A DNA stretch of 64,000 bases from an uncultured Planctomycetales bacterium (lineage in GTDB: Bacteria; Planctomycetota; MHYJ01; JACPRB01), in assembly GCA_964468745.1 (NCBI GenBank), contig CAYXVY010000140.1, positions 5,945 to 69,944 on the forward strand, in the 5' to 3' direction. Numbering within the stretch: the first letter of the stretch is position 1; every line of letters begins with the position of its first letter. The notes under the pieces are model-generated. The model was not told the origin of the DNA. It made no database searches and saw only the letters and a list, made by a program, of their open reading frames with translations. Made by a program: the position numbers and the translations under genes. This document shows, in pieces, positions 5,473 to 52,073 of this stretch.

Positions 5473-6185
5473 ATGTCGTCTCCCCCGATCAGGATCTCCA
5501 TCGACGTCTCGCACACGTTGACCCACGGCGCCTCGACGGGGATCCAGCGCATCGTACGGAACGTCGCGCGATGGGCCGCGGAAGCAGGCGAGGACGCGGG
5601 GATCGAGGGCCGCCCCATCGTCGTGGACAACCGCAGATCCCGCCGCCCGCGGTGGCCGTACGCCCACGTCCCCTTCATTTCGGCGATAGTAGCCGGCACC
5701 CCGCTACCCCCGGCATCTGCCGAACGCCCAGGCCAGGGAACAAGAAGCGCGGGCACACGCGCCGCAAGCCGTGCGAATCCTGCAGGCAGTTTATGAACGT
5801 CACGAGTCCATTGCGCTGGCTGGGTACCCAGTGGACGCGGCTTAAAGAAGAAGGCTTGGCCGCACGAACCTTGGCGCTGGGCAAAAAACTTTTGAGACCC
5901 GTGCTGCGCGGCTGCTTCCGCTTTGCCGGTTCACGCCCGCGCCTGAAACGGGCAGGCGCACGGCTGGCAAGAAATTCCGGCCTGTATGGGCCTCTGCATT
6001 CGCTGTACCTGCGCTTATCCGGCAAGGCCCTTCCGGTCGCGATCCTGGATCACGAGCTGCTGTTCAATGACGATGCGGAGGAAACCTCGCCCGCCAGGAT
6101 GCCGGGGAAACTGACCCTCGACGAACTCCTTTCGCGCATTCGCGCGGAACTGGCAGACCCCAAGAAACAGGGACAGCCACGGTGA
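5473..6185 (+). pseudogene. Frameshifted, truncated N-terminal fragment of a GT4 glycosyltransferase; a paralog of the 50311..51639 gene
   Basis: Two ORFs in different frames (5473..5796 and 5793..6185) resemble the N-terminal domain of the GT at 50311..51639 (ISIDVSHTLTHGASTGIQRIVRNVARW vs LIECTASFTSGLNTGVQRVMRGLANN; LLRPVLRGCFRFAGSRPRLKRAG vs LRAVLPSGVARSVIRTLKRAE). No catalytic C-terminal domain follows. The AT-richer block begins near 5800. Confidence 0.4.
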
Positions 6186-24778: not shown

Positions 24779-25945
24779 CTACCGTCTGAGCCGCAGCAGA
24801 GCTCGCGTTGTTTCCCCCTCATGGACTGCTTCGCTGAGGATCTCCATGCGGAGTCCAATCGACGCTCCGAGTTTCTTGAAGGCATTCAGATTCCACTCGA
24901 CAAGTGCGCGCGTTCCGCGGGTTTCAGAGACATCCTTCGCACAAAATATATCGGCGAGAATGCGACCTCCATCTCCCATGCACCTCGTGGCGTCAGTTAG
25001 GAGTCCGCGAGACTCATGCGGATAGGTGTGCGTTAGGACGCTCATGAAGAGCACAAAATCGAAGGGTCCTCCAACAATTTCGAGTGGCAGACTGGCGTCC
25101 ATATTCCGCGTGAAGGAAAATGTGGAGCGACTGTAGCGCTGTCTGCAGAAAGCCACAGGCTTTTCCGCGATATCTGTACCGCAGTAGCGCCCCGTCGAAT
25201 CCAAGAAGCTGTGTAGTGGTCGTGTTAACAGCCCTGTTCCGCAACCCACATCGAGTACGCGGGAATTGCGCGCCAATCCAAATTCCATCAACATGCGCAA
25301 CTTGTCGTCGCCCAGTGTGACGAACTGTTCCTCGGACGGAACTCCGACGACCGACCAGTAGTCGCGAGTAAAGTCGGCGTTTTCCCAGACAGTGGCATAT
25401 TCGCCAAAATCGCCAGGCCGCGCTCCAGCGATTTCAACTGTGATCGGTGAGACTCTTGAGCCCCGATCCTTGAACCAGGTAATGTTTTCGTGAACTAAGT
25501 CAAATTCGAGCGTACACAGACTTGGAGTGGCAGGCGCCTGAACTGTCGCGCGAACTAAGACCTCTGCGCCGGAATCAATATCGGTTGGAAAATCGGTCCG
25601 AATCCCGTCATAGACAAGTACTTTCCCGTCTTGTCGCAGCCAATGGTATGCCAGCCGAACGGCATTTGGTTTGTTTCCAGCAGGCCACCGATGGGGAGTA
25701 GCGTTACGAACGCGCACGGGCACTTGAACAATCTCTCCTTCGTGCAGCTTGGCAGGTGCCTCTAGTACGTGGATTTGGGCGCGGTATGCCACGCTGGGCA
25801 TGCTGTCCAGTGGCAAGGTGGGGTCGCCCAACTGCAGTTCTCCTTTTTCTGAGTCCGACTTAGTATCTGAGTTTTGCAGCAGATGCAAGAAGCGATTCGC
25901 CGAGAGCCTTCGAATCTCGCGAGCTATTTCTTCGCCGGTTGACAT
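24779..25945 (-). CDS. Class I SAM-dependent methyltransferase (C-terminal) with a ~190-aa N-terminal domain of unknown function
   Basis: VLDVGCGTGLL (SAM-binding motif I) and downstream motifs (FDFVLFMSVLTH). Noticeably AT-richer than the background. Confidence 0.7.
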   Translation of the reverse strand: MSTGEEIAREIRRLSANRFLHLLQNSDTKSDSEKGELQLGDPTLPLDSMPSVAYRAQIHVLEAPAKLHEGEIVQVPVRVRNATPHRWPAGNKPNAVRLAYHWLRQDGKVLVYDGIRTDFPTDIDSGAEVLVRATVQAPATPSLCTLEFDLVHENITWFKDRGSRVSPITVEIAGARPGDFGEYATVWENADFTRDYWSVVGVPSEEQFVTLGDDKLRMLMEFGLARNSRVLDVGCGTGLLTRPLHSFLDSTGRYCGTDIAEKPVAFCRQRYSRSTFSFTRNMDASLPLEIVGGPFDFVLFMSVLTHTYPHESRGLLTDATRCMGDGGRILADIFCAKDVSETRGTRALVEWNLNAFKKLGASIGLRMEILSEAVHEGETTRALLRLRR

Positions 25946-25982
25946 AGGATCGACGCGCCCGATAAGCTCCGCTGGCGAACGA

Positions 25983-27293
25983 ATGGATAACCACTTGCAT
26001 CGCGTTGAGATTCAGCACGTTGCCCCGACCACCGTTGATCCCTTGGTGCTCTGGGGGGCAGGGCTGAACTCGCCCACGCTTGGTACGAGCGGCAGTTACT
26101 CAATTGGAATTGCAGGTTGGGTATTACCGCGCGCGGGACAAAGGGCTAAAGTCCAGTTCACTTGTGGACGCCGAATCCTCAGTGAACTAGAAATTGACCG
26201 GTGGCGACCTGACGTGCTGAAGCACTTCCCCGATATTCCCGGTGCCGAGCATTGCGGATTCTACGGGTCGCTACGGACGGTAGAACTCCCTAGTCAGTTC
26301 GATATCCAGATCTCCATCAAGTTGGAAGGCCACGGATTGCTTCCCATGACGACCATTCGCGGCTGTCGCAATTCCATCGTTCCTGCGCCGGTGGAATCAC
26401 TGCGTCCAATCTTTATTACATCGTTAGGGCGCTGCGGCTCGACCTATCTCGCCCTGCTGCTAAAAAACCATCCCGAGATAGTAGTTGCTGGCCCCTTCCC
26501 GTACGAAAACCACGTACTCCCTTACTGGGTTTCAGTTTTCGAGACCCTCTCAGCTCCACAGTCTTTCTTAAAGCAGCTCGCCTCGCCCCTGCGTGGACAC
26601 TATTGGTGGCTGGGCGATGCGCGCGACTCAGTAGAGACCTACCTTGAGCGCTTTCCCAACGTAGATCTCGTTGGTGGCGACGCGGTTGACGCAGCCGCAA
26701 CGTTCTGTCGTGCTCGCGTTTACGCGTACGATGCACAACTTGCAGCACGCGTCGGCAAGCCGAAGGCTGTTTATTTCGCCGAGAAGTTACCTCCGTCCGG
26801 CCCCAACCCCCTCGCGGAACAACTGTTCCCCACGACGCGTGAAATCGTACTTCTTCGCGATCCCCGAGACATTATCGCGTCCGTGCTCGCGTTCAATCGA
26901 AAGCGGGGTTTCGCATCGTTTAGCCGCGAACTCGTTCAGAGCGATCTAGAGTATGTGGCTTCCATTCGACATCAGTGGCTCGCGCTGGCCGTCGGATGGC
27001 GGAACCGAAAGACAAATGCGATAGTTGTACGTTACGAAGATCTCATGGAGAAACGTGACGAGACCGTCCGAAGCGTCTTTGGTGCATTGAATCTGTCAGC
27101 TTCTGATGACGTGCTTCGACACGTGGTGGAAGCCTCCGCACAGGAAGATGTCGCTCTTCAAGAAGCTCATATGACATCAACAAGCACTGAAAGTTCGATT
27201 GGCAGATGGAAGCGGGAGCTTCCAAGTGAGCTCCAGAAAGCCTGCAGGGACACCCTAGGTGACGCGCTGGAGGAGTTCGGTTACGCAGTGTAA
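25983..27293 (+). CDS. Sulfotransferase family protein (PAPS-dependent)
   Basis: 5'-PSB motif ITSLGRCGSTYLALLL and 3'-PB motif LLRDPRDIIASV. Track ORF 25749..27293 overlaps the convergent methyltransferase gene by ~200 bp. Starting at the internal Met (MDNHLH..., 25983) removes the overlap and the low-complexity N-terminus. Confidence 0.75.
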   Translation: MDNHLHRVEIQHVAPTTVDPLVLWGAGLNSPTLGTSGSYSIGIAGWVLPRAGQRAKVQFTCGRRILSELEIDRWRPDVLKHFPDIPGAEHCGFYGSLRTVELPSQFDIQISIKLEGHGLLPMTTIRGCRNSIVPAPVESLRPIFITSLGRCGSTYLALLLKNHPEIVVAGPFPYENHVLPYWVSVFETLSAPQSFLKQLASPLRGHYWWLGDARDSVETYLERFPNVDLVGGDAVDAAATFCRARVYAYDAQLAARVGKPKAVYFAEKLPPSGPNPLAEQLFPTTREIVLLRDPRDIIASVLAFNRKRGFASFSRELVQSDLEYVASIRHQWLALAVGWRNRKTNAIVVRYEDLMEKRDETVRSVFGALNLSASDDVLRHVVEASAQEDVALQEAHMTSTSTESSIGRWKRELPSELQKACRDTLGDALEEFGYAV

Positions 27294-27412
27294 CCGCGCT
27301 TACCACGCTTTACTGGCATATCGAAAGTCAACGCCTCCGGACTTCGACGCGCGTACGCGCACCATTTCCTGATTCTGTCTCCGGTCTCCTGAATTCTGTA
27401 TCCTCTCCGCAC

Positions 27413-28150
27413 ATGCGCCACCGGTCCGAAGTCGCCTACTTCCAGCCCACCAGCTGGACTGTCGTCGAAGAAGCGCAGGACAAGGCCGGACCCGCGGCGC
27501 GTGCCGCCTACGAACGGCTCGCCGCCGGCTACTGGAAACCCACCTTCTTCTTCCTCCGCAAGCGCGGGCTCCGGCGCGAGAACGCCGAAGACGCCACCCA
27601 GGACTTCTTCGCCTACTTCTTCGACCGCGACTTCATCCAGAACGCCGACCCCGCCAAGGGGAAGTTCCGCACCTTCATCATCGCCCACCTCGAAAACTTC
27701 CTCGCCAACCAGCGGCGTAACGCCCACACCGTGCGACGCGGCAAAGGCACCCACACCATCAGCGCCGACTTCGGCGATGCCGAGCAGGAACTCTCCGGCA
27801 TGCCCGCCTCCATCGAAACCGCCGACGCCGTCTTCCTCCGCTCGTGGGCCCTCGAAACGATGGCCAAGGCGTGGGAGCTGCTCCGCCTCAAGATGATCGA
27901 GAGCGGCGAAGGCCACTACTTCGGCCCCCTCCACACCTTCTTCAACAACGTGAAGGACCGGCCCACCCGCGCCCAGCTCGAGGAACAGCTCGGCCTGTCC
28001 TACAAACAAGTCGACCACCTCATCGACGGGACGCGCAAGCAGTTCAAGGATCAGCTCCGCCTCGTCGTCCGTCCCACGGTCGAAAACGAGAGCGAAGTGA
28101 AGGCGGAAATCGTCGCACTCTTCGACGCCCTGGGCGCGACTCAGCCGTAA
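27413..28150 (+). CDS. ECF-type RNA polymerase sigma factor (sigma-70 regions 2 and 4)
   Basis: Region 2 (ENAEDATQDFFAYFF...FRTFIIAHLENFLANQRR) and a region 4 HTH (RAQLEEQLGLSYKQVDHLIDGTRKQFKDQL). 245 aa. Confidence 0.8.
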   Translation: MRHRSEVAYFQPTSWTVVEEAQDKAGPAARAAYERLAAGYWKPTFFFLRKRGLRRENAEDATQDFFAYFFDRDFIQNADPAKGKFRTFIIAHLENFLANQRRNAHTVRRGKGTHTISADFGDAEQELSGMPASIETADAVFLRSWALETMAKAWELLRLKMIESGEGHYFGPLHTFFNNVKDRPTRAQLEEQLGLSYKQVDHLIDGTRKQFKDQLRLVVRPTVENESEVKAEIVALFDALGATQP

Positions 28151-28273
28151 CCGGCCACCCGTCGCGGCACACCCGCGCCCGCACGCGCGTACCCCGATCA
28201 GACAATCCGCACTTTCCGCGCGCGGATTCGCACTTTCGTCCGGGAAGTCGCCCCAAACCTTACCTAAGGGAGT

Positions 28274-28774
28274 ATGAACGCAAACGTAAACAAGAAGGAC
28301 GGGGGCGAAACGACGCCGAAGGGCGTCCTGCCGCGGCAGGACGATGCACCGGCTTCCCAGCGCACCACCGTGGCGCGGCACGACGCTGCACCGGAATCCC
28401 AGCGCGCCTCCGTGGCGGGGCACGGCATTGCACCGGCTTCCCAGCGCACCACCGTGACGCGGCACGACAGCACATCGGCTTCCCAGCGCACTTCCGTGCC
28501 GAGTCACGACACTGCATCGGCATCTCGACGCACCTCCATGGCGGGGCATGGCACTGCATCGGCAACCCGGCGCACTAGCGTGGCGGGGCACGGCGCTGCA
28601 CTGGCCACCCGGCGCACTTCCGTGCCGCGGCACGACACTGCACCGGCATCCCGATGCACCTCCGTGACGCGGCAGGACGTCGGGATCGCGATCCTCACCC
28701 ACTTCGATCGAGGACCTCCTGTGCATCCATCGCTCTCACGCAGTAACGCGACGGGGAGTGTTTCCCCGTCGTGA
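28274..28774 (+). CDS. Repetitive Ser/Thr/Arg/His-rich protein (8 x 14-aa repeats) encoded directly downstream of the ECF sigma factor; strand assignment tentative
   Basis: AGGGAG-like SD before the ATG at 28274. Body is 8 near-identical 14-residue units (APASQRTTVARHDA...). The complementary strand is also open (PRHGGALGSRC... repeats), so strand is not certain. Confidence 0.35.
   Translation: MNANVNKKDGGETTPKGVLPRQDDAPASQRTTVARHDAAPESQRASVAGHGIAPASQRTTVTRHDSTSASQRTSVPSHDTASASRRTSMAGHGTASATRRTSVAGHGAALATRRTSVPRHDTAPASRCTSVTRQDVGIAILTHFDRGPPVHPSLSRSNATGSVSPS
28346..28681. repeat. 42-bp tandem repeat x8
   Basis: Units gcaccggcttcccagcgcaccaccgtggcgcggcacgacgct and variants are repeated 8 times head-to-tail (28346, 28388, ... 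28640). Confidence 0.9.
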
Positions 28775-28831
28775 CGGTTCGACGAAATCGAACCCGGTTT
28801 TCAATAACAAAACAGATTAGGAGATCTAACC

Positions 28832-29554
28832 ATGTTCATTCCGCAAAACCACAACGCCAGCCAGCGGCTGGTGGATACGTTCGGTACCTATCTCGCGTCC
28901 CGCCTGAAGGCGAACGCCGAGACCCGCAGTCTGTACGAGACCTTCCAGAAGGCGCAGGAGACGCTCGACGCCTCCAATGCCCTTCAGCGGAAGTCCCGGC
29001 GCGGGATGTTGGAGGCTCAGTCCGCGCGTGATCACGCCGCGTTCCTGATGGGGCGCGTGATCGCCAAGTTCCAGCTCGCCGTGCTCGCGCACGTCGAGAA
29101 GGTCCGGACGAGCCCGCTGTACGGCCGTTACTTCAAGGACGGGATGGAAGCGATCGCGCTCGTCCCGCCGCATCGCCTGGTCGAGAACGTGAAGACGTTC
29201 GAACGCGACCTGGCGATGTCCGCGGACGCCGAAGCTCTGCGGTCCTGGGTCCCGGTGCTCGTTGAAGGCCGGATGACCCTGGAGAAGTCCATGGTCGAGT
29301 ACTCCGACGCTCGGATCGTGTACACCAACGCGGTGAACGCCGAGGAGACGGAGCGGCTCCACTGGGTGGAGGCTTACCGCACCGTCGCCGGCGACCTCGT
29401 CGGGATCTACCCGGCCGATCGTCGGAAGATCGAGAGCTTCTTCCGGAAGGGTCGCAAGCCGCGCGGCGGCACGACCCCGACGGAAGCGGCCACCTCCGAC
29501 GAGACGAAGGTGATCGGTCCGCCGACGGCGGGGGAGACCCGAATCGCCATGTAG
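28832..29554 (+). CDS. Hypothetical protein (240 aa)
   Basis: Good SD (ttAGGAGatctaacc-ATG). No recognisable motifs. Lies between the sigma factor/repeat-protein genes and the Ser/Thr kinase. Confidence 0.5.
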   Translation: MFIPQNHNASQRLVDTFGTYLASRLKANAETRSLYETFQKAQETLDASNALQRKSRRGMLEAQSARDHAAFLMGRVIAKFQLAVLAHVEKVRTSPLYGRYFKDGMEAIALVPPHRLVENVKTFERDLAMSADAEALRSWVPVLVEGRMTLEKSMVEYSDARIVYTNAVNAEETERLHWVEAYRTVAGDLVGIYPADRRKIESFFRKGRKPRGGTTPTEAATSDETKVIGPPTAGETRIAM

Positions 29555-29745
29555 ACACCGCACAGTCGCGAGAACGGGGAAGCGGGAAGCGAGAATCGAC
29601 CCGCGACTCGATCGAAGGGCGATGGGAGACGTCAGGTTGCACGCACCCTCCATCCGCGCGATCGAACGTTGAGGTCGTGACTCGCTTCCCCTTCCCCGGA
29701 TCTCCACACCGTTCCCTTTTTCAAACAATTTGATACTCTTCCGAG

Positions 29746-29811
29746 CGGCCTTGCGGCCTCGCTCACCATGAACGGATTCGACTCGGCCTTGCGGCCTCGC
29801 TCACCATGAAC
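29746..29811 (+). repeat. 28-bp direct duplication (cggccttgcggcctcgctcaccatgaac x2) spanning the kinase start codon; the upstream copy creates a 13-codon uORF overlapping the kinase ATG
   Basis: Copies at 29746-29773 and 29784-29811. uORF atg(29768)...tga(29807-29809) = MNGFDSALRPRSP*. Its stop overlaps ATG 29806 (ccATGAac). Confidence 0.8.
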
Positions 29812-31326
29812 TGCCCCGAGTGTAATGCCCCCGACGTCGCCGGCATCTGCTACGCCTGCGTGATGGGCAAGCCAAAGGAAATGTCCTCTGGCCCGGCTTC
29901 GTCGCAGCCGGCGCCCGTCGATCCCGCGAAGGATCTCCCCGCCCTCAAGCGCGGCGACAAGATCGGCGGCTGGTATATCCTCTCACTGATCGCTTCGGGC
30001 GGTCACGCCGTCGTTTACAAAGTCGAAGCCGCCGGCGTCATCGTCGCGACCAAGATGCTGCGACCGTCGATGGCGAAGCGCCCTGAAGTCCTCGCGCGCC
30101 TCCAGCGCGAGAAGGAACTGTTGCAGTCCTTCGACCATCCCAACATCGTAAAGGTCCTCGACAGCGGCAAGGGTCCGCCGCCGTGGTACGCGATGACGCT
30201 CGTCAATGGCAAGTCGCTGCGGCAACGGCTCGATGAGGGGCGCGTACCGGCGACCGAAGCGACGCGCATCGGCGACGCAGTCTGCTCCGTCGTCGAGTAC
30301 GTCCATTCGAAGGACGTCGTGCATCGCGACCTCAAGCCCGCGAACATCATCCTCGACACGCAGGGCCACGTGTGGCTCGTGGACTTCGGCGTCGCGAAGC
30401 ACAAGTCGGACCTCCCCCCGAAGAACGGCCCGACGGGCGCCGACACGCCGGATCAGCAGACCGAGGACGGGCAGTTCGTCGGGACGCGCGACTACGCGTC
30501 GCCGGAGCAGCTCGCGAACTCTCACCTGGCGGACCAGCGGTCGGACATCTACTCGCTCGCCCTCATCCTGTACGAGATGCACACGGGGATCCGGCCGCCG
30601 ACGATCGGCAAGGACGGGCGTCCGGTGCTCACGCAAACGGCGGCGGGGGGGACGCCGCCCGGGGTGCGCAAACTGAGCGCGCCGTCGAAGGATGCGCCCG
30701 TGACGCGGGAGTTCGACGACGCGGTGCTGGAGTCGCTCCTCGTGGATCCCGATCTCCGCCCGCAGTCCGTGGCGGAGTTGAGGGCGGCGCTCAAGGAGGC
30801 GGCGAAGTGGATCTCCTATAAGACGGTCATGGACGAGAAGAAACTCCAGGCGTGGCAGATCGATCAGGCGCGGGAGTGTCATCCGGTCAAGACCCGCATG
30901 TACCGGGGCCGGCTGTTCCTGGATCGAGCCGGTTTCGAGTATGCGCTCCGCGCGTGGCGGCACAAGGGGTCGCAGCCGGACGCGCAGGGGTCGCAGACGG
31001 CGGCGCTAACGACCCTGCTGGCGATCTTCGCGTGCGGCTTCCTGCTGGCGGGGCACGCCGCGTGGGACGATCGGGGGTTGAGCGCGGGTCTGTTCGTGTT
31101 CGGCCTGGGGCTCGGGATCGCGACGTTCCTATTCCACGCGAAGGCGGACAAGGAGATCCGGGAGTCGCAAGGCGGGCTGACGGGGATGGGGTGGGTATGG
31201 TTTGGGACGCTGCTGGCGTCGCTCGCGTTGACGGTTGCGCTGCTGTCGGCGATGACGCGGGAAAAGCCGAAGGTGAAGACGCCGGGGCCGGCGACGTCAG
31301 GCGAAGACGTCCGGCGCGTGCGATGA
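29806..31326 (+). CDS. Serine/threonine protein kinase with N-terminal zinc-ribbon (CxxC...CxxC) and C-terminal transmembrane segments
   Basis: CPECNAPDVAGICYAC; kinase subdomains (VATKML, HRDLKPANIIL, DFGVAKH, GTRDYASPEQ). C-terminal hydrophobic segments (ALTTLLAIFACGFLLAG..., LFVFGLGLGIATFLF, WVWFGTLLASLALTVALL). Confidence 0.85.
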   Translation: MNCPECNAPDVAGICYACVMGKPKEMSSGPASSQPAPVDPAKDLPALKRGDKIGGWYILSLIASGGHAVVYKVEAAGVIVATKMLRPSMAKRPEVLARLQREKELLQSFDHPNIVKVLDSGKGPPPWYAMTLVNGKSLRQRLDEGRVPATEATRIGDAVCSVVEYVHSKDVVHRDLKPANIILDTQGHVWLVDFGVAKHKSDLPPKNGPTGADTPDQQTEDGQFVGTRDYASPEQLANSHLADQRSDIYSLALILYEMHTGIRPPTIGKDGRPVLTQTAAGGTPPGVRKLSAPSKDAPVTREFDDAVLESLLVDPDLRPQSVAELRAALKEAAKWISYKTVMDEKKLQAWQIDQARECHPVKTRMYRGRLFLDRAGFEYALRAWRHKGSQPDAQGSQTAALTTLLAIFACGFLLAGHAAWDDRGLSAGLFVFGLGLGIATFLFHAKADKEIRESQGGLTGMGWVWFGTLLASLALTVALLSAMTREKPKVKTPGPATSGEDVRRVR

Positions 31327-31387: not shown

Positions 31388-31690
31388 TCATCTGAGCTTG
31401 GGGCCGATCCCGCGCACGGCGCTCCACACCGCCAAGACGACGACGCTATCCTTGTGGATCTTGTAGTAGACGTGATAGCGGCTCGACCGTAGCAGGACTC
31501 TGCGAATTCCGGCGACCGTCGGATGCGGATAGGGTCTCCCAGCCCGGGGCGCACCGCTCAGGAGTGAGAAGGCTGCCGCCAGTTCCTCGGCAAACAGATT
31601 GGGGGCAGCGGTCCTTTCGCGACGCCACCAAACATCGATTGTCCGAACCTGCGTTTCGGCCTCGGGAGCAACGAACACCCGCAGGGTCAT
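31388..31690 (-). CDS. parE: ParE/RelE-family type II toxin
   Basis: MTLRVFVAPEAETQVRTIDVWW...GIRRVLLRSSRYHVYYKI...VVLAVWSAVRG is the ParE-like pattern. Start overlaps the antitoxin stop (ATGA). Confidence 0.65.
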   Translation of the reverse strand: MTLRVFVAPEAETQVRTIDVWWRRERTAAPNLFAEELAAAFSLLSGAPRAGRPYPHPTVAGIRRVLLRSSRYHVYYKIHKDSVVVLAVWSAVRGIGPKLR

Positions 31691-31917
31691 CGACCGAAGC
31701 GGAGATCGTTGATCAGGTGGTGCGCGGGGCGAAGTTTGCCCTTCCTGGCCGAGGCCCACGCCCTCTCAATGGCCCGATCGAGAACCATGCGCTCCCGCTG
31801 CGTCAGATCGTCGCCTTCATCGTCCAGGACGAGGTCCAGCGTCGTTCCATCCGGCAGACTCGTCGGCTCATCAAGATGCAAGCGCCCGTTCTTGACGCGT
31901 GCGCGAAGGCTGCCCAT
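31687..31917 (-). CDS. Type II antitoxin (ParD/Phd-like), upstream partner of the ParE-like toxin
   Basis: 76-aa acidic protein (MGSLRARVKNGRLHLDEPTSLPDGTTLDLVLDDEGDD...). Minus-strand TATACT -10 at 31924-31929 sits 6 nt upstream of the ATG at 31917. Confidence 0.55.
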   Translation of the reverse strand: MGSLRARVKNGRLHLDEPTSLPDGTTLDLVLDDEGDDLTQRERMVLDRAIERAWASARKGKLRPAHHLINDLRFGR

Positions 31918-32266
31918 GTCCACAGTATATCAGGGGCGCTCCACGGTTCCAGTTGCGGGACCCGCCCGGGGCCGGTGACCTCCGGCGCGGACGCTAACTC
32001 GCTCGCATGCGGGGTCCTGCCTGATACTCTGCCGTGCCGGCCGGAGTTGCGTCCCGGGGCGCCGGCCTCCCCCATCGTCGTGGGTCTCCATGCTCTTCAG
32101 CGAGCCGTTCTTCCTCTTCCTGCCCCTCCCTCTCACCCTCGCCGCCGCCGGTGCTGAGCCCGGCGTCAGGCCGCTGACGGTCCATCCCCGCCGCACGCGC
32201 GTCGGATCGCCATTCGCCGTCGCTCCGATGAAACGCGAAGCGCGGCGGCGGCAATCGGACGCGCGA

Positions 32267-51719: not shown

Positions 51720-52073
51720 ATGCCCACATACGACTACGGGTGTGCCGCGTGCGGGCACGTCTTCGAGGTGTTTGAGAAGATCAACGATGGAGGAACGAAG
51801 GCCTGTCTGAAGTGCGGCAAGAGGCGCGCCAAGCGGCGCATCGGCGCCGGCGCGGGCGTGATCTTCAAGGGAAGCGGCTTCTACGCCACCGACTCCAAGG
51901 AGTCCTCGAAGGCCCCCTCCACCGGCGGGGACAAGAAGAAGACGACGCGAAAGACGACCGAGACCAAGACCGAAACAAAGACCGAGACTAAGCCCGAGAC
52001 GAAGACCGAGGCCAAGTCCGAGGCAAAGACCGAGTCGAAACCCGAGAAAACAGAAAAGACGGAGAAACGATGA
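51720..52073 (+). CDS. FmdB-family zinc-ribbon protein with Lys/Thr/Glu-rich repetitive C-terminal tail
   Basis: MPTYDYGCAACGHVFEV...CLKCG (CxxC...CxxC), then KKKTTRKTTETKTETKTETKPETKTEAKSEAKTESKPEKTEKTEKR. TATAAT at 51701-51706 sits 13 nt upstream of the ATG (CCCTATAATCGCCCCC module) with TTGCCG -35. Confidence 0.6.
   Translation: MPTYDYGCAACGHVFEVFEKINDGGTKACLKCGKRRAKRRIGAGAGVIFKGSGFYATDSKESSKAPSTGGDKKKTTRKTTETKTETKTETKPETKTEAKSEAKTESKPEKTEKTEKR

Follow-up and report, generated by a model that had tools for sequence, protein, structure and literature searches.

We describe a palindromic repeat array and its neighbouring gene in a 64-kb stretch of DNA from an uncultured Planctomycetales bacterium (contig CAYXVY010000140.1, positions 5,945 to 69,944). 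This stretch is referred to below as the window, and all window coordinates are those of its full length. The array consists of nine palindromes spaced at exactly 42 bp (28313-28690, no strand assigned), and it precedes a gene for a protein of 240 amino acids (aa), designated hyp240 (28832-29554, + strand). The association of such an array with a hyp240-family gene recurs in other lineages, with the period conserved and the sequence not. The repeat is very probably both non-coding and a functional partner of the hyp240-family gene. No record of an association between a 42-bp array and this protein family was found in Pfam, NCBIfam, PADLOC, PHROGs, Rfam or the literature searched, and a literature search on 42-bp repeats returned nothing relevant.

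Arrays of conserved period adjoin hyp240-family genes

An earlier sequence-only reading of this region had noted a 42-bp tandem repeat in eight copies. This was borne out by Tandem Repeats Finder (TRF), which reported a 42-bp unit in 8.3 copies at 28332-28678 (78% matches, no indels), together with a 126-bp higher-order period in the same repeat. It is the sole repeat of 42-bp period within the window. The palindromes share the core CGTG-N6-CACG, their centres lie at 28334 + 42n up to 28670, and the autocorrelation of the array at lag 42 is 0.71. Pairs k = 3-6 of the palindromes are Watson-Crick in eight to nine of the nine units. The pattern CGTGN6CACG has 11 matches across the window, six of them in the array, compared to 3.1 expected, and a longer palindrome pattern has eight matches versus 0.63 expected. 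An identity as REP (repetitive extragenic palindromic) elements was rejected, since the motif is confined to the array.

On its 5' side the array is preceded by a leader (28151-28312, +). Between the stop codon of the upstream sigma-like gene and the array, this leader carries a direct repeat, ATCCGCACTTTC / ATTCGCACTTTC, with a 21-bp spacing (28205-28237). On the 3' side, RNA folding predicts two strong hairpins on the + strand (28747-28773 and 28776-28794), followed by CGGTTTTCAA. They represent a possible attenuator or terminator; they are not conserved in the related loci L004 or L015 and are not reported by the terminator scan. Alignment of the window with these two loci revealed the motif TTTTCAA (28798-28804, +), followed by an AGGAG Shine-Dalgarno sequence (28819-28823, +). 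TTTTCAA is located 25-35 nt 5' of the hyp240 start in the window, L004 (~700-720) and L015 (~245-275), is doubled in the latter two loci, and occurs again 5' of the kinase gene of the window (29719-29725). Judging from the aligned sequences, it may be a clade-specific promoter or regulatory element.

A profile search with hyp240 among 1.84 billion cluster representatives identified 265 clusters at E <= 1e-3, including 113 at E <= 1e-10 (clusters at ~50% identity). Other searches added little: a single locus, a doubtful one from Nostoc (L005), came from genome contigs, word-indexed searches with proteins had very few matches, and metagenome scans recovered no family loci in the first round and three in the second. 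No family loci were found in viral contigs, and tblastn against plasmids detected no homologues. About nine loci out of the 265 family clusters were inspected. In seven to eight independent lineages, a 42-bp (or 84-bp) array adjoins the hyp240 homologue, and the family proteins at array-bearing loci range down to 25-30% identity with the window protein. The array period is 42 bp in the window, L008, L009 and L016, 42/43 bp in L004, ~42 bp in L015, 42/84 bp in L014 and 84 bp in L010. Relatives carry 5 to 9 units, as anticipated by the sequence-only reading, which had named the repeat a candidate for length variation. The fetched flanks of L009, L010 and L014, like the rest of the window, contain no further arrays of this period.

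The hyp240 homologue of L004 is 50% identical to the window protein. It is preceded by the C-terminus of a sigma-like protein (E = 2e-11 to the window sigma) and a 505-bp gap, and is followed by a gene with a Cys-rich start. TRF reported no repeat in the gap, which contains nine TTCC-N6-GGAA sites (0.89 expected; reached by none of 200 shuffles). Eight of these sites are spaced at 42, 42, 43, 42, 43, 42 and 42 bp, and the ninth, with one mismatch, lies 20 bp upstream of the first. In L015, where the protein is 51% identical to that of the window, the array is a degenerate ~42-bp repeat that has the GCGCGGCAC core in common with the window. L009 and L014 each carry six units of the form (CCG)TCTCG-N6-CGAGA(TGG) with a 42-bp period. 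In L010-13 and L020, GGGGAAAT-N22-ATTTCCCC inverted repeats recur with an 84-bp period and stay in register as far as the start codon; these loci are near-identical to one another (1-2 nt apart) and thus uninformative on array micro-evolution. The protein of L008 is a family member with an hhalign probability of 99.8%, and L017 gives a weak 84-bp signal. The contig of L006 is cut 207 bp 5' of the hyp240-family gene. Palindromes particular to the lineage make up most of the arrays and follow a common geometry. The genes neighbouring the array and the hyp240 homologue vary from locus to locus.

The contigs of L015, L016, L006 and L017-19 often stop 200-430 bp 5' of the gene, within or at the array, which suggests that the arrays systematically break short-read assemblies and that the association is consequently under-sampled; such breaks may be the reason why the contigs of relatives are short. 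In the loci with TCTCG arrays, tandem heptamers of 7 bp (TCACCCT, GAAGTGA, CGTCTCA) are abundant in intergenic regions (L009, 5307-5460, 6708-6749 and 9293-9335; L014, 1246-1715).

The action of selection on the arrays can be followed by comparing L009 with L014, whose hyp240-family proteins are 79% identical. A position-by-position comparison gave identities of 89% for the 8-nt palindrome arms, 61% for the 6 nt at the centre and 48% for the 20-nt linkers, with zero gaps within the array. The combination of gap-free spacing and divergent linkers implies that the length of the spacers is constrained while their sequence is free. As read from this alignment, the pattern is the signature of spaced recognition elements. 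The region 5' of the array is 55% identical, with indels of lengths not divisible by three, and it contains a conserved promoter-like element, TGGTATGAT / TGGTATACT, the only such element seen by eye. Between the array and the gene lies an 80-nt GC-rich element (L014, 455-535; L009, ~5893-5975). It is 90% identical between the two loci, which exceeds the value for the adjacent coding sequence, and differs by a 1-nt indel just 3' of the array. Two hairpins are predicted in it, GCGGGC..CCGGGGG / CCCTCCGG..CCCGC and GGGCCGCAAGCCC; no Rfam family matches the element.

These comparisons bear on another explanation of the repeat, a minisatellite or an assembly artefact without a function of its own. 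Slippage does generate GC-rich tandem repeats, and the 78% likeness of the window units, together with their 126-bp higher-order period, suggests recent amplification. Against this, at least seven lineages whose unit sequences are unrelated have this period beside one and the same gene family, the arms are selectively conserved and their spacing is gap-free. Moreover, an independent assembly likewise contains the 166-aa repeat ORF, the sigma gene and the hyp240 gene in unchanged order. A neutral or incidental origin is thus extremely improbable.

Coding potential of the 166-aa repeat ORF

The sequence-only reading had translated the repeat into a 166-aa protein (28274-28774, +), rich in Thr, Ser, Arg and His and composed of 14-aa repeats, which was proposed to be a kinase substrate, a scaffold or an unconventional anti-sigma partner. 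Several features agree with this proposal. The open reading frame (ORF) starts with ATG and was called by one gene caller on a metagenome contig, and 42 is divisible by three. The partial homologous array of L015 is open in the same frame and reads ARHD..P.S...S.AG as in the window. The arrays of L004, L009 and L014 likewise have a + strand frame that stays open throughout. However, three of the six frames (two on the + strand, one on the - strand) are free of stop codons across 28332-28678, as expected from the base composition, and an open frame in this region therefore carries little weight. In GC-rich genomes generally, open frames over tandem repeats are no evidence of a gene.

The composition of the ORF differs from that of its neighbours. 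The GC contents at codon positions 1/2/3 (GC1/2/3) are 0.65/0.67/0.73 for the repeat ORF, compared to 0.65/0.42/0.88 for the sigma gene, 0.64/0.45/0.89 for hyp240 and 0.67/0.47/0.88 for the kinase gene; both the low GC3 and the high GC2 oppose translation. The ATG used as a start codon in the sequence-only reading is supplied by a GTATG at 28272-28276, and the Shine-Dalgarno-like AAGGGAG ends just 1 nt 5' of it, compared to 8 nt between AGGAG and the ATG of hyp240. In the proposed frame, a period-3 test on the eight units found no concentration of variation at third codon positions. The counts of unit-to-unit variation at the three positions were 23/13/14, with a maximum at position 1 and an excess too small to weigh, and they are used here solely as an absence of support for coding. 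A 481-aa antisense ORF (27281-28726, -), which spans the sigma gene completely and the array for the most part, was rejected as an artefact of the high GC3 of the sense strand; its frame shows the most 'synonymous-like' unit-to-unit variation in the array.

The sequence-only reading had also called for a check on the conservation of the repeat protein in relatives, and neither frame nor peptide proved to be conserved, with only L015 keeping the frame. DNA similarity between the window leader and L004 is only patchy, and the distance from the ATG to the first palindrome differs by a 13-nt indel. The palindromes of L004 occupy three reading frames because of the 43-bp steps, and the longest ORF of that array has no real similarity to the window ORF (BLASTP E = 0.02). 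All six frames of the L010 array are interrupted by stops. The fully open frames of L009 and L014 differ from each other, and the indels just 5' and just 3' of their arrays have lengths not divisible by three; differing open frames and freely varying linkers in this pair are incompatible with a conserved peptide. The linkers, at 48% identity versus 79% for the adjacent protein, indicate no purifying selection on a peptide. No genes were called inside the arrays of L004, L009, L010, L014 or L015. The exact 166-aa sequence is absent from a collection of 15 billion proteins in which the sigma, hyp240 and kinase proteins of the same NCBI contig are all present.

Codon composition and comparative data thus both oppose a translated Thr/Ser-rich protein, and we consider its existence highly improbable. 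The 166-aa ORF is most likely not a gene, the repeat being a non-coding array, and the repeat 'protein' should be dropped from the annotation.

The array as a possible DNA platform or repeat RNA

The hyp240 protein has no match in Pfam, NCBIfam, PADLOC or PHROG. Its AlphaFold2 model, built from a 42-sequence alignment, has a pLDDT (predicted local distance difference test) score of 93.6 and shows an elongated all-alpha bundle with two helices of ~60 residues; fold searches returned generic helical bundles only. Over the 42 members, W178 and F204 are the only invariant residues, the near-invariant ones are Y, L and F, and no conserved catalytic-type or invariant polar residue is present. The C-terminus carries a conserved ESFFRxGP motif, followed by a basic stretch and then a disordered tail, and the longer family members have no domain fusions beyond disordered tails. 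An identity as a HEPN protein was rejected, as the Rx4-6H motif is missing. Given the confidently modelled bundle, the lack of an invariant polar residue and the basic C-terminal stretch, hyp240 looks like a non-enzymatic scaffold or binding protein.

The reading that we favour, if only tentatively, is that the repeat is a helically phased palindromic DNA array that nucleates a cooperative complex and thereby controls the hyp240 and kinase genes. The nine CGTG-N6-CACG palindromes, placed at four turns of B-DNA, would form a multi-site binding platform. Each palindrome would be bound by a dimer through half-sites 10 bp apart, and, as the sites all point to one side of the helix, the proteins bound there would join into a single cooperative complex of higher order. 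The most parsimonious candidate for the binder is the hyp240 product, because the sequence of the array varies among lineages together with the protein. In the clade of the window, the complex would set the transcription of hyp240 and of the downstream kinase gene. The logic would be that of sopC/SopB- or parC/ParR-type arrays, in which operator and assembly site are one. We infer all three elements of this model: action as DNA rather than RNA, the identity of the binder and the regulatory outcome.

Several features of the arrays point to DNA. The periods of 21 (a sub-period), 42 and 84 bp correspond to 2, 4 and 8 turns of B-DNA, i.e. whole multiples of 10.5 bp, and lineages retain the period even where their unit sequences are unrelated. 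Reliable complementarity extends over just 4 bp per arm, around a 6-nt centre, in the window and L004; arms of this length make a marginal RNA hairpin and are typical half-sites of a dimeric DNA binder. Within each array the arm sequence itself is kept, beyond mere pairing. Counts of G-U versus A-C mismatches showed no consistent strand bias, and base skew likewise showed none. Folding of whole arrays as RNA, on both strands, gave well-folded structures throughout, as expected of palindromic repeats, and did not discriminate. Promoter and terminator consensus scans were uninformative in GC-rich sequence, and no canonical terminator was found.

The main and serious rival, which we regard as rather unlikely, is a repeat RNA resembling that of type III toxin-antitoxin systems. 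According to this explanation, the array is transcribed from a 5' promoter, and its 42-nt units, each a hairpin with a linker, bind hyp240 as RNA. The RNA would neutralise or scaffold the protein, and the hairpins between array and gene would set the RNA:protein ratio. In the known type III systems (toxIN, cptIN, tenpIN), an array of 31-62 nt units is located 5', or sometimes 3', of the protein gene, a palindrome often lies between array and gene, and the loci occupy variable genome regions (PMC3401426). The layout of tandem array, palindrome and protein gene described here fits this published definition, which also allows the array to lie 3' of the toxin gene and gaps to be as long as 340 bp (PMC3401426). 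Strong hairpins 3' of the array in the window and L014, and a conserved extended -10-like element 5' of the array in L009 and L014, are further points in its favour. Family members also occur in variable or defence-like contexts, as in L010 with its genes for a restriction-modification methylase, a helicase and a helix-turn-helix (HTH) protein, and the fixed unit length could mirror the geometry of the protein.

The type III-like explanation is opposed first by the protein, as hyp240 is unrelated to ToxN, CptN and TenpN and is all-alpha, without an invariant polar or catalytic residue. Comparison of orthologous arrays leaves just 16 conserved nt in each 42-nt unit (linkers, 48%), and the units diverge strongly within L004 and L010. 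The stems in the window and L004 are only 4 bp long, L004 and L015 have no post-array hairpins, and G-U pairs show no consistent strand bias. A search of the window region and eight loci against Rfam returned nothing relevant. The arrays, with 5-9 copies, also exceed the 1.9-5.6 copies of the known families (PMC3401426).

The phased DNA platform has to be weighed against a number of observations that do not favour it. Some of them concern RNA. One window unit, centred at 28544, contains a compensatory double change (CCATG...CATGG), the single case of its kind, which is expected of a base-paired stem. The arms of L009 and L014 form 8-bp stems, their arrays are probably transcribed, given the promoter-like element lying 5', and the 90%-conserved GC-rich hairpin element on the 3' side fits an RNA role equally well. 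Others concern the arrays themselves. The 42-bp array of L016 is C-rich, has no obvious palindrome and decays toward the gene; in L008 the array, six AACGCGCGGCAC units at 42 bp, is located downstream of the gene; and L007 has no array. Finally, the evidence base comprises about nine loci of 265 clusters.

A broader reading, which appears possible and which we hold with still more reserve, is that the window contains one example of an undescribed and widespread two-part system, in which a helical-bundle family of ~265 clusters co-evolves with a cognate array of fixed period and lineage-specific sequence. On the array, either as DNA or in the form of RNA, the protein would build up a nucleoprotein complex of higher order. 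Such a system could be a switch of a new, self-contained kind, or an element resembling a toxin-antitoxin pair or a centromere, and in the window clade it would sit between an ECF (extracytoplasmic function)-like sigma factor and a membrane Ser/Thr kinase. If the protein does bind the array, the pair would constitute a new protein-nucleic acid recognition module with natural specificity variants built in. The association with arrays also provides a concrete handle on the function of ~265 unannotated protein clusters.

Guide arrays of the CRISPR/TIGR type were considered separately and rejected. In the window, L009, L014 and L016 the units have related linkers, and unique spacers are absent; no cas-like domains were detected among the neighbours scanned, and Rfam gave no match.

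Flanking genes and comparison with known systems

The ORF listing confirmed the four ORFs of the sequence-only reading, all on the + strand, in the order sigma-like gene, repeat ORF, 240-aa ORF and kinase gene. The first of them (27413-28150, +; 245 aa) had been described as an ECF sigma factor. This identification proved less secure, as the window protein itself falls below every curated threshold. It matched TIGR02937 with 25.2 bits (residues 32-215 to model positions 2-165 of 165, E = 1e-5; cut-off 42.9 bits) and Sigma70_r2 (PF04542) with 14 bits (cut-off 24), and a profile search of the PDB retrieved ECF sigma factors at E = 0.3-0.8 only. Among the four family members, Sigma70_r2 was detected in all four, and PF07638 (Sigma70_ECF) and region 4_2 in two each. 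The N-terminal motif 'TSWTVV' belongs to a TxW family of motifs also present in the homologues P0002 and P0004, and a word-indexed search found very few relatives. By its sequence the first gene appears to encode a divergent ECF-like sigma factor, sigma-like at the family level only.

The last gene of the module encodes a membrane-anchored Hanks-type Ser/Thr kinase (29806-31326, +; 506 aa). A Ser/Thr kinase with a CxxC...CxxC N-terminus had been predicted at this position, and the prediction held: the protein matches Pkinase (PF00069) with 128.9 bits (cut-off 31.7, E = 3e-37) and a PknB-like model at 2.7e-53. Its translation contains HRDLKPANI, DFG, the beta-3 Lys, an N-terminal CxxC-N9-CxxC and three C-terminal hydrophobic segments. 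The start region of the gene has a feature of its own, a perfect 28-nt direct duplication of CGGCCTTGCGGCCTCGCTCACCATGAAC, with the copies 38 bp apart (29746-29811, +), and the kinase start codon lies within it. The first copy opens an upstream ORF (uORF) of 13 codons, MNGFDSALRPRSP followed by a stop codon (29768-29809), and this stop overlaps the kinase ATG as ATGA. The overlap may reflect translational coupling or a recent slippage event.

Pairing of an ECF-like sigma factor with a Ser/Thr kinase is, as the sequence-only reading had supposed, a known regulatory arrangement. Groups associated with such kinases comprise ECF43 (EcfP-PknT), ECF59-62, ECF217, ECF267 and ECF283 (PMC7826278), and EcfK is directly phosphorylated by PknS (PMC13147305). 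The window resembles these systems in that a small protein of sigma2-sigma4 type is encoded near a membrane Hanks kinase, with no adjacent anti-sigma factor detected, and one homologue of the window sigma matches PF07638. It differs from them in that the window sigma lies below all curated thresholds and the sigma and kinase genes are separated by the array and hyp240. On sequence grounds, the two genes probably form a kinase-controlled sigma pair of a known kind, and by themselves they would be an ordinary pair. They flank the array-hyp240 unit in the window clade only. The sigma-like gene is present in this position in the window and L004, and the kinase is confirmed in the window only; conservation of the pairing rests on L004, one truncated relative in which the gene at the kinase position is cut after 51 aa and shows the Cys-rich start only. 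Other sigma homologues have no kinase nearby or end at a contig edge. One of them, P0004, found in a metagenome-assembled genome of Verrucomicrobiota (L003, 1-7300), adjoins a stretch rich in defence and toxin-antitoxin genes, with matches to AbiGi, DUF3800, HicA, MqsA-like and ADP-ribosyltransferase-like proteins.

The module is surrounded by genes for glycosyltransferases, a sulfotransferase and a methyltransferase (domain scans), in agreement with the sequence-only reading, which had placed it in a surface-glycan locus. Directly 3' of the kinase gene, on the opposite strand, lies a gene for a ParE-family toxin (PF05016, 3.4e-8; 31388-31759, -). A small ORF upstream of it and overlapping it (31687-31923, -), without a Pfam match, may encode the antitoxin. 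On the other side of the module, 5' of the sigma gene, a methyltransferase gene (-) and a sulfotransferase gene (+) occupy 24779-27293. Their GC3 is 0.57-0.58, compared to 0.88 for the sigma, hyp240 and kinase genes, regional GC falls to 0.55-0.57, and the listed ORFs overlap at 25749-25945. Both genes are likely of foreign origin and, taken together with the ParE toxin, they suggest a mosaic character for this part of the locus. Only one further tandem repeat of appreciable size is present in the window; it has a period of 12/24/36 bp (GACCGAGACAAA) and is located at 51956-52047, probably within a coding region.

Iterons are direct repeats of 17-22 bp at a spacing of about 22 bp, recognised by Rep proteins of the winged-helix type. 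By analogy, the arrays described here resemble those of theta-replicating plasmids in being helically phased direct repeats of lineage-specific sequence beside the gene of a presumed binder and autoregulator. They differ from iterons in their palindromic 42-bp units and in the absence of replicon features.

With the type III toxin-antitoxin loci, the window and its relatives share a tandem nucleotide array adjoining a protein gene. Unlike in those loci, the protein is no ToxN-like endoribonuclease, its fold being unrelated and lacking conserved catalytic residues, and within each unit only the palindrome arms are conserved. The period keeps to 42 or 84 here instead of varying within the family, the number of copies is higher, and the terminator is inconsistent, with hairpins in the window and L014 and none in L004 and L015.

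The closest architectural analogue is sopC of the F plasmid, in which each of 12 repeats of 43 bp contains a 16-bp inverted repeat that SopB binds (PMC3177203). There are clear differences. No ParA, ParB or ParR homologue was detected among the immediate neighbours scanned; a weak P-loop match at L009 is the lone exception to the non-Par character of the neighbours at other loci. The setting is chromosomal, with no plasmid match by tblastn, and the candidate binder is modelled as an elongated helical bundle in which no HTH or ribbon-helix-helix motif was detected. The resemblance lies in the arrangement of the sites. As in sopC/SopB and parC/ParR, tandem repeats of ~42-43 bp each contain a short inverted repeat, the copies share one face of the helix, the array adjoins the gene of its presumed binder, and the sequence of the sites is specific to the lineage.

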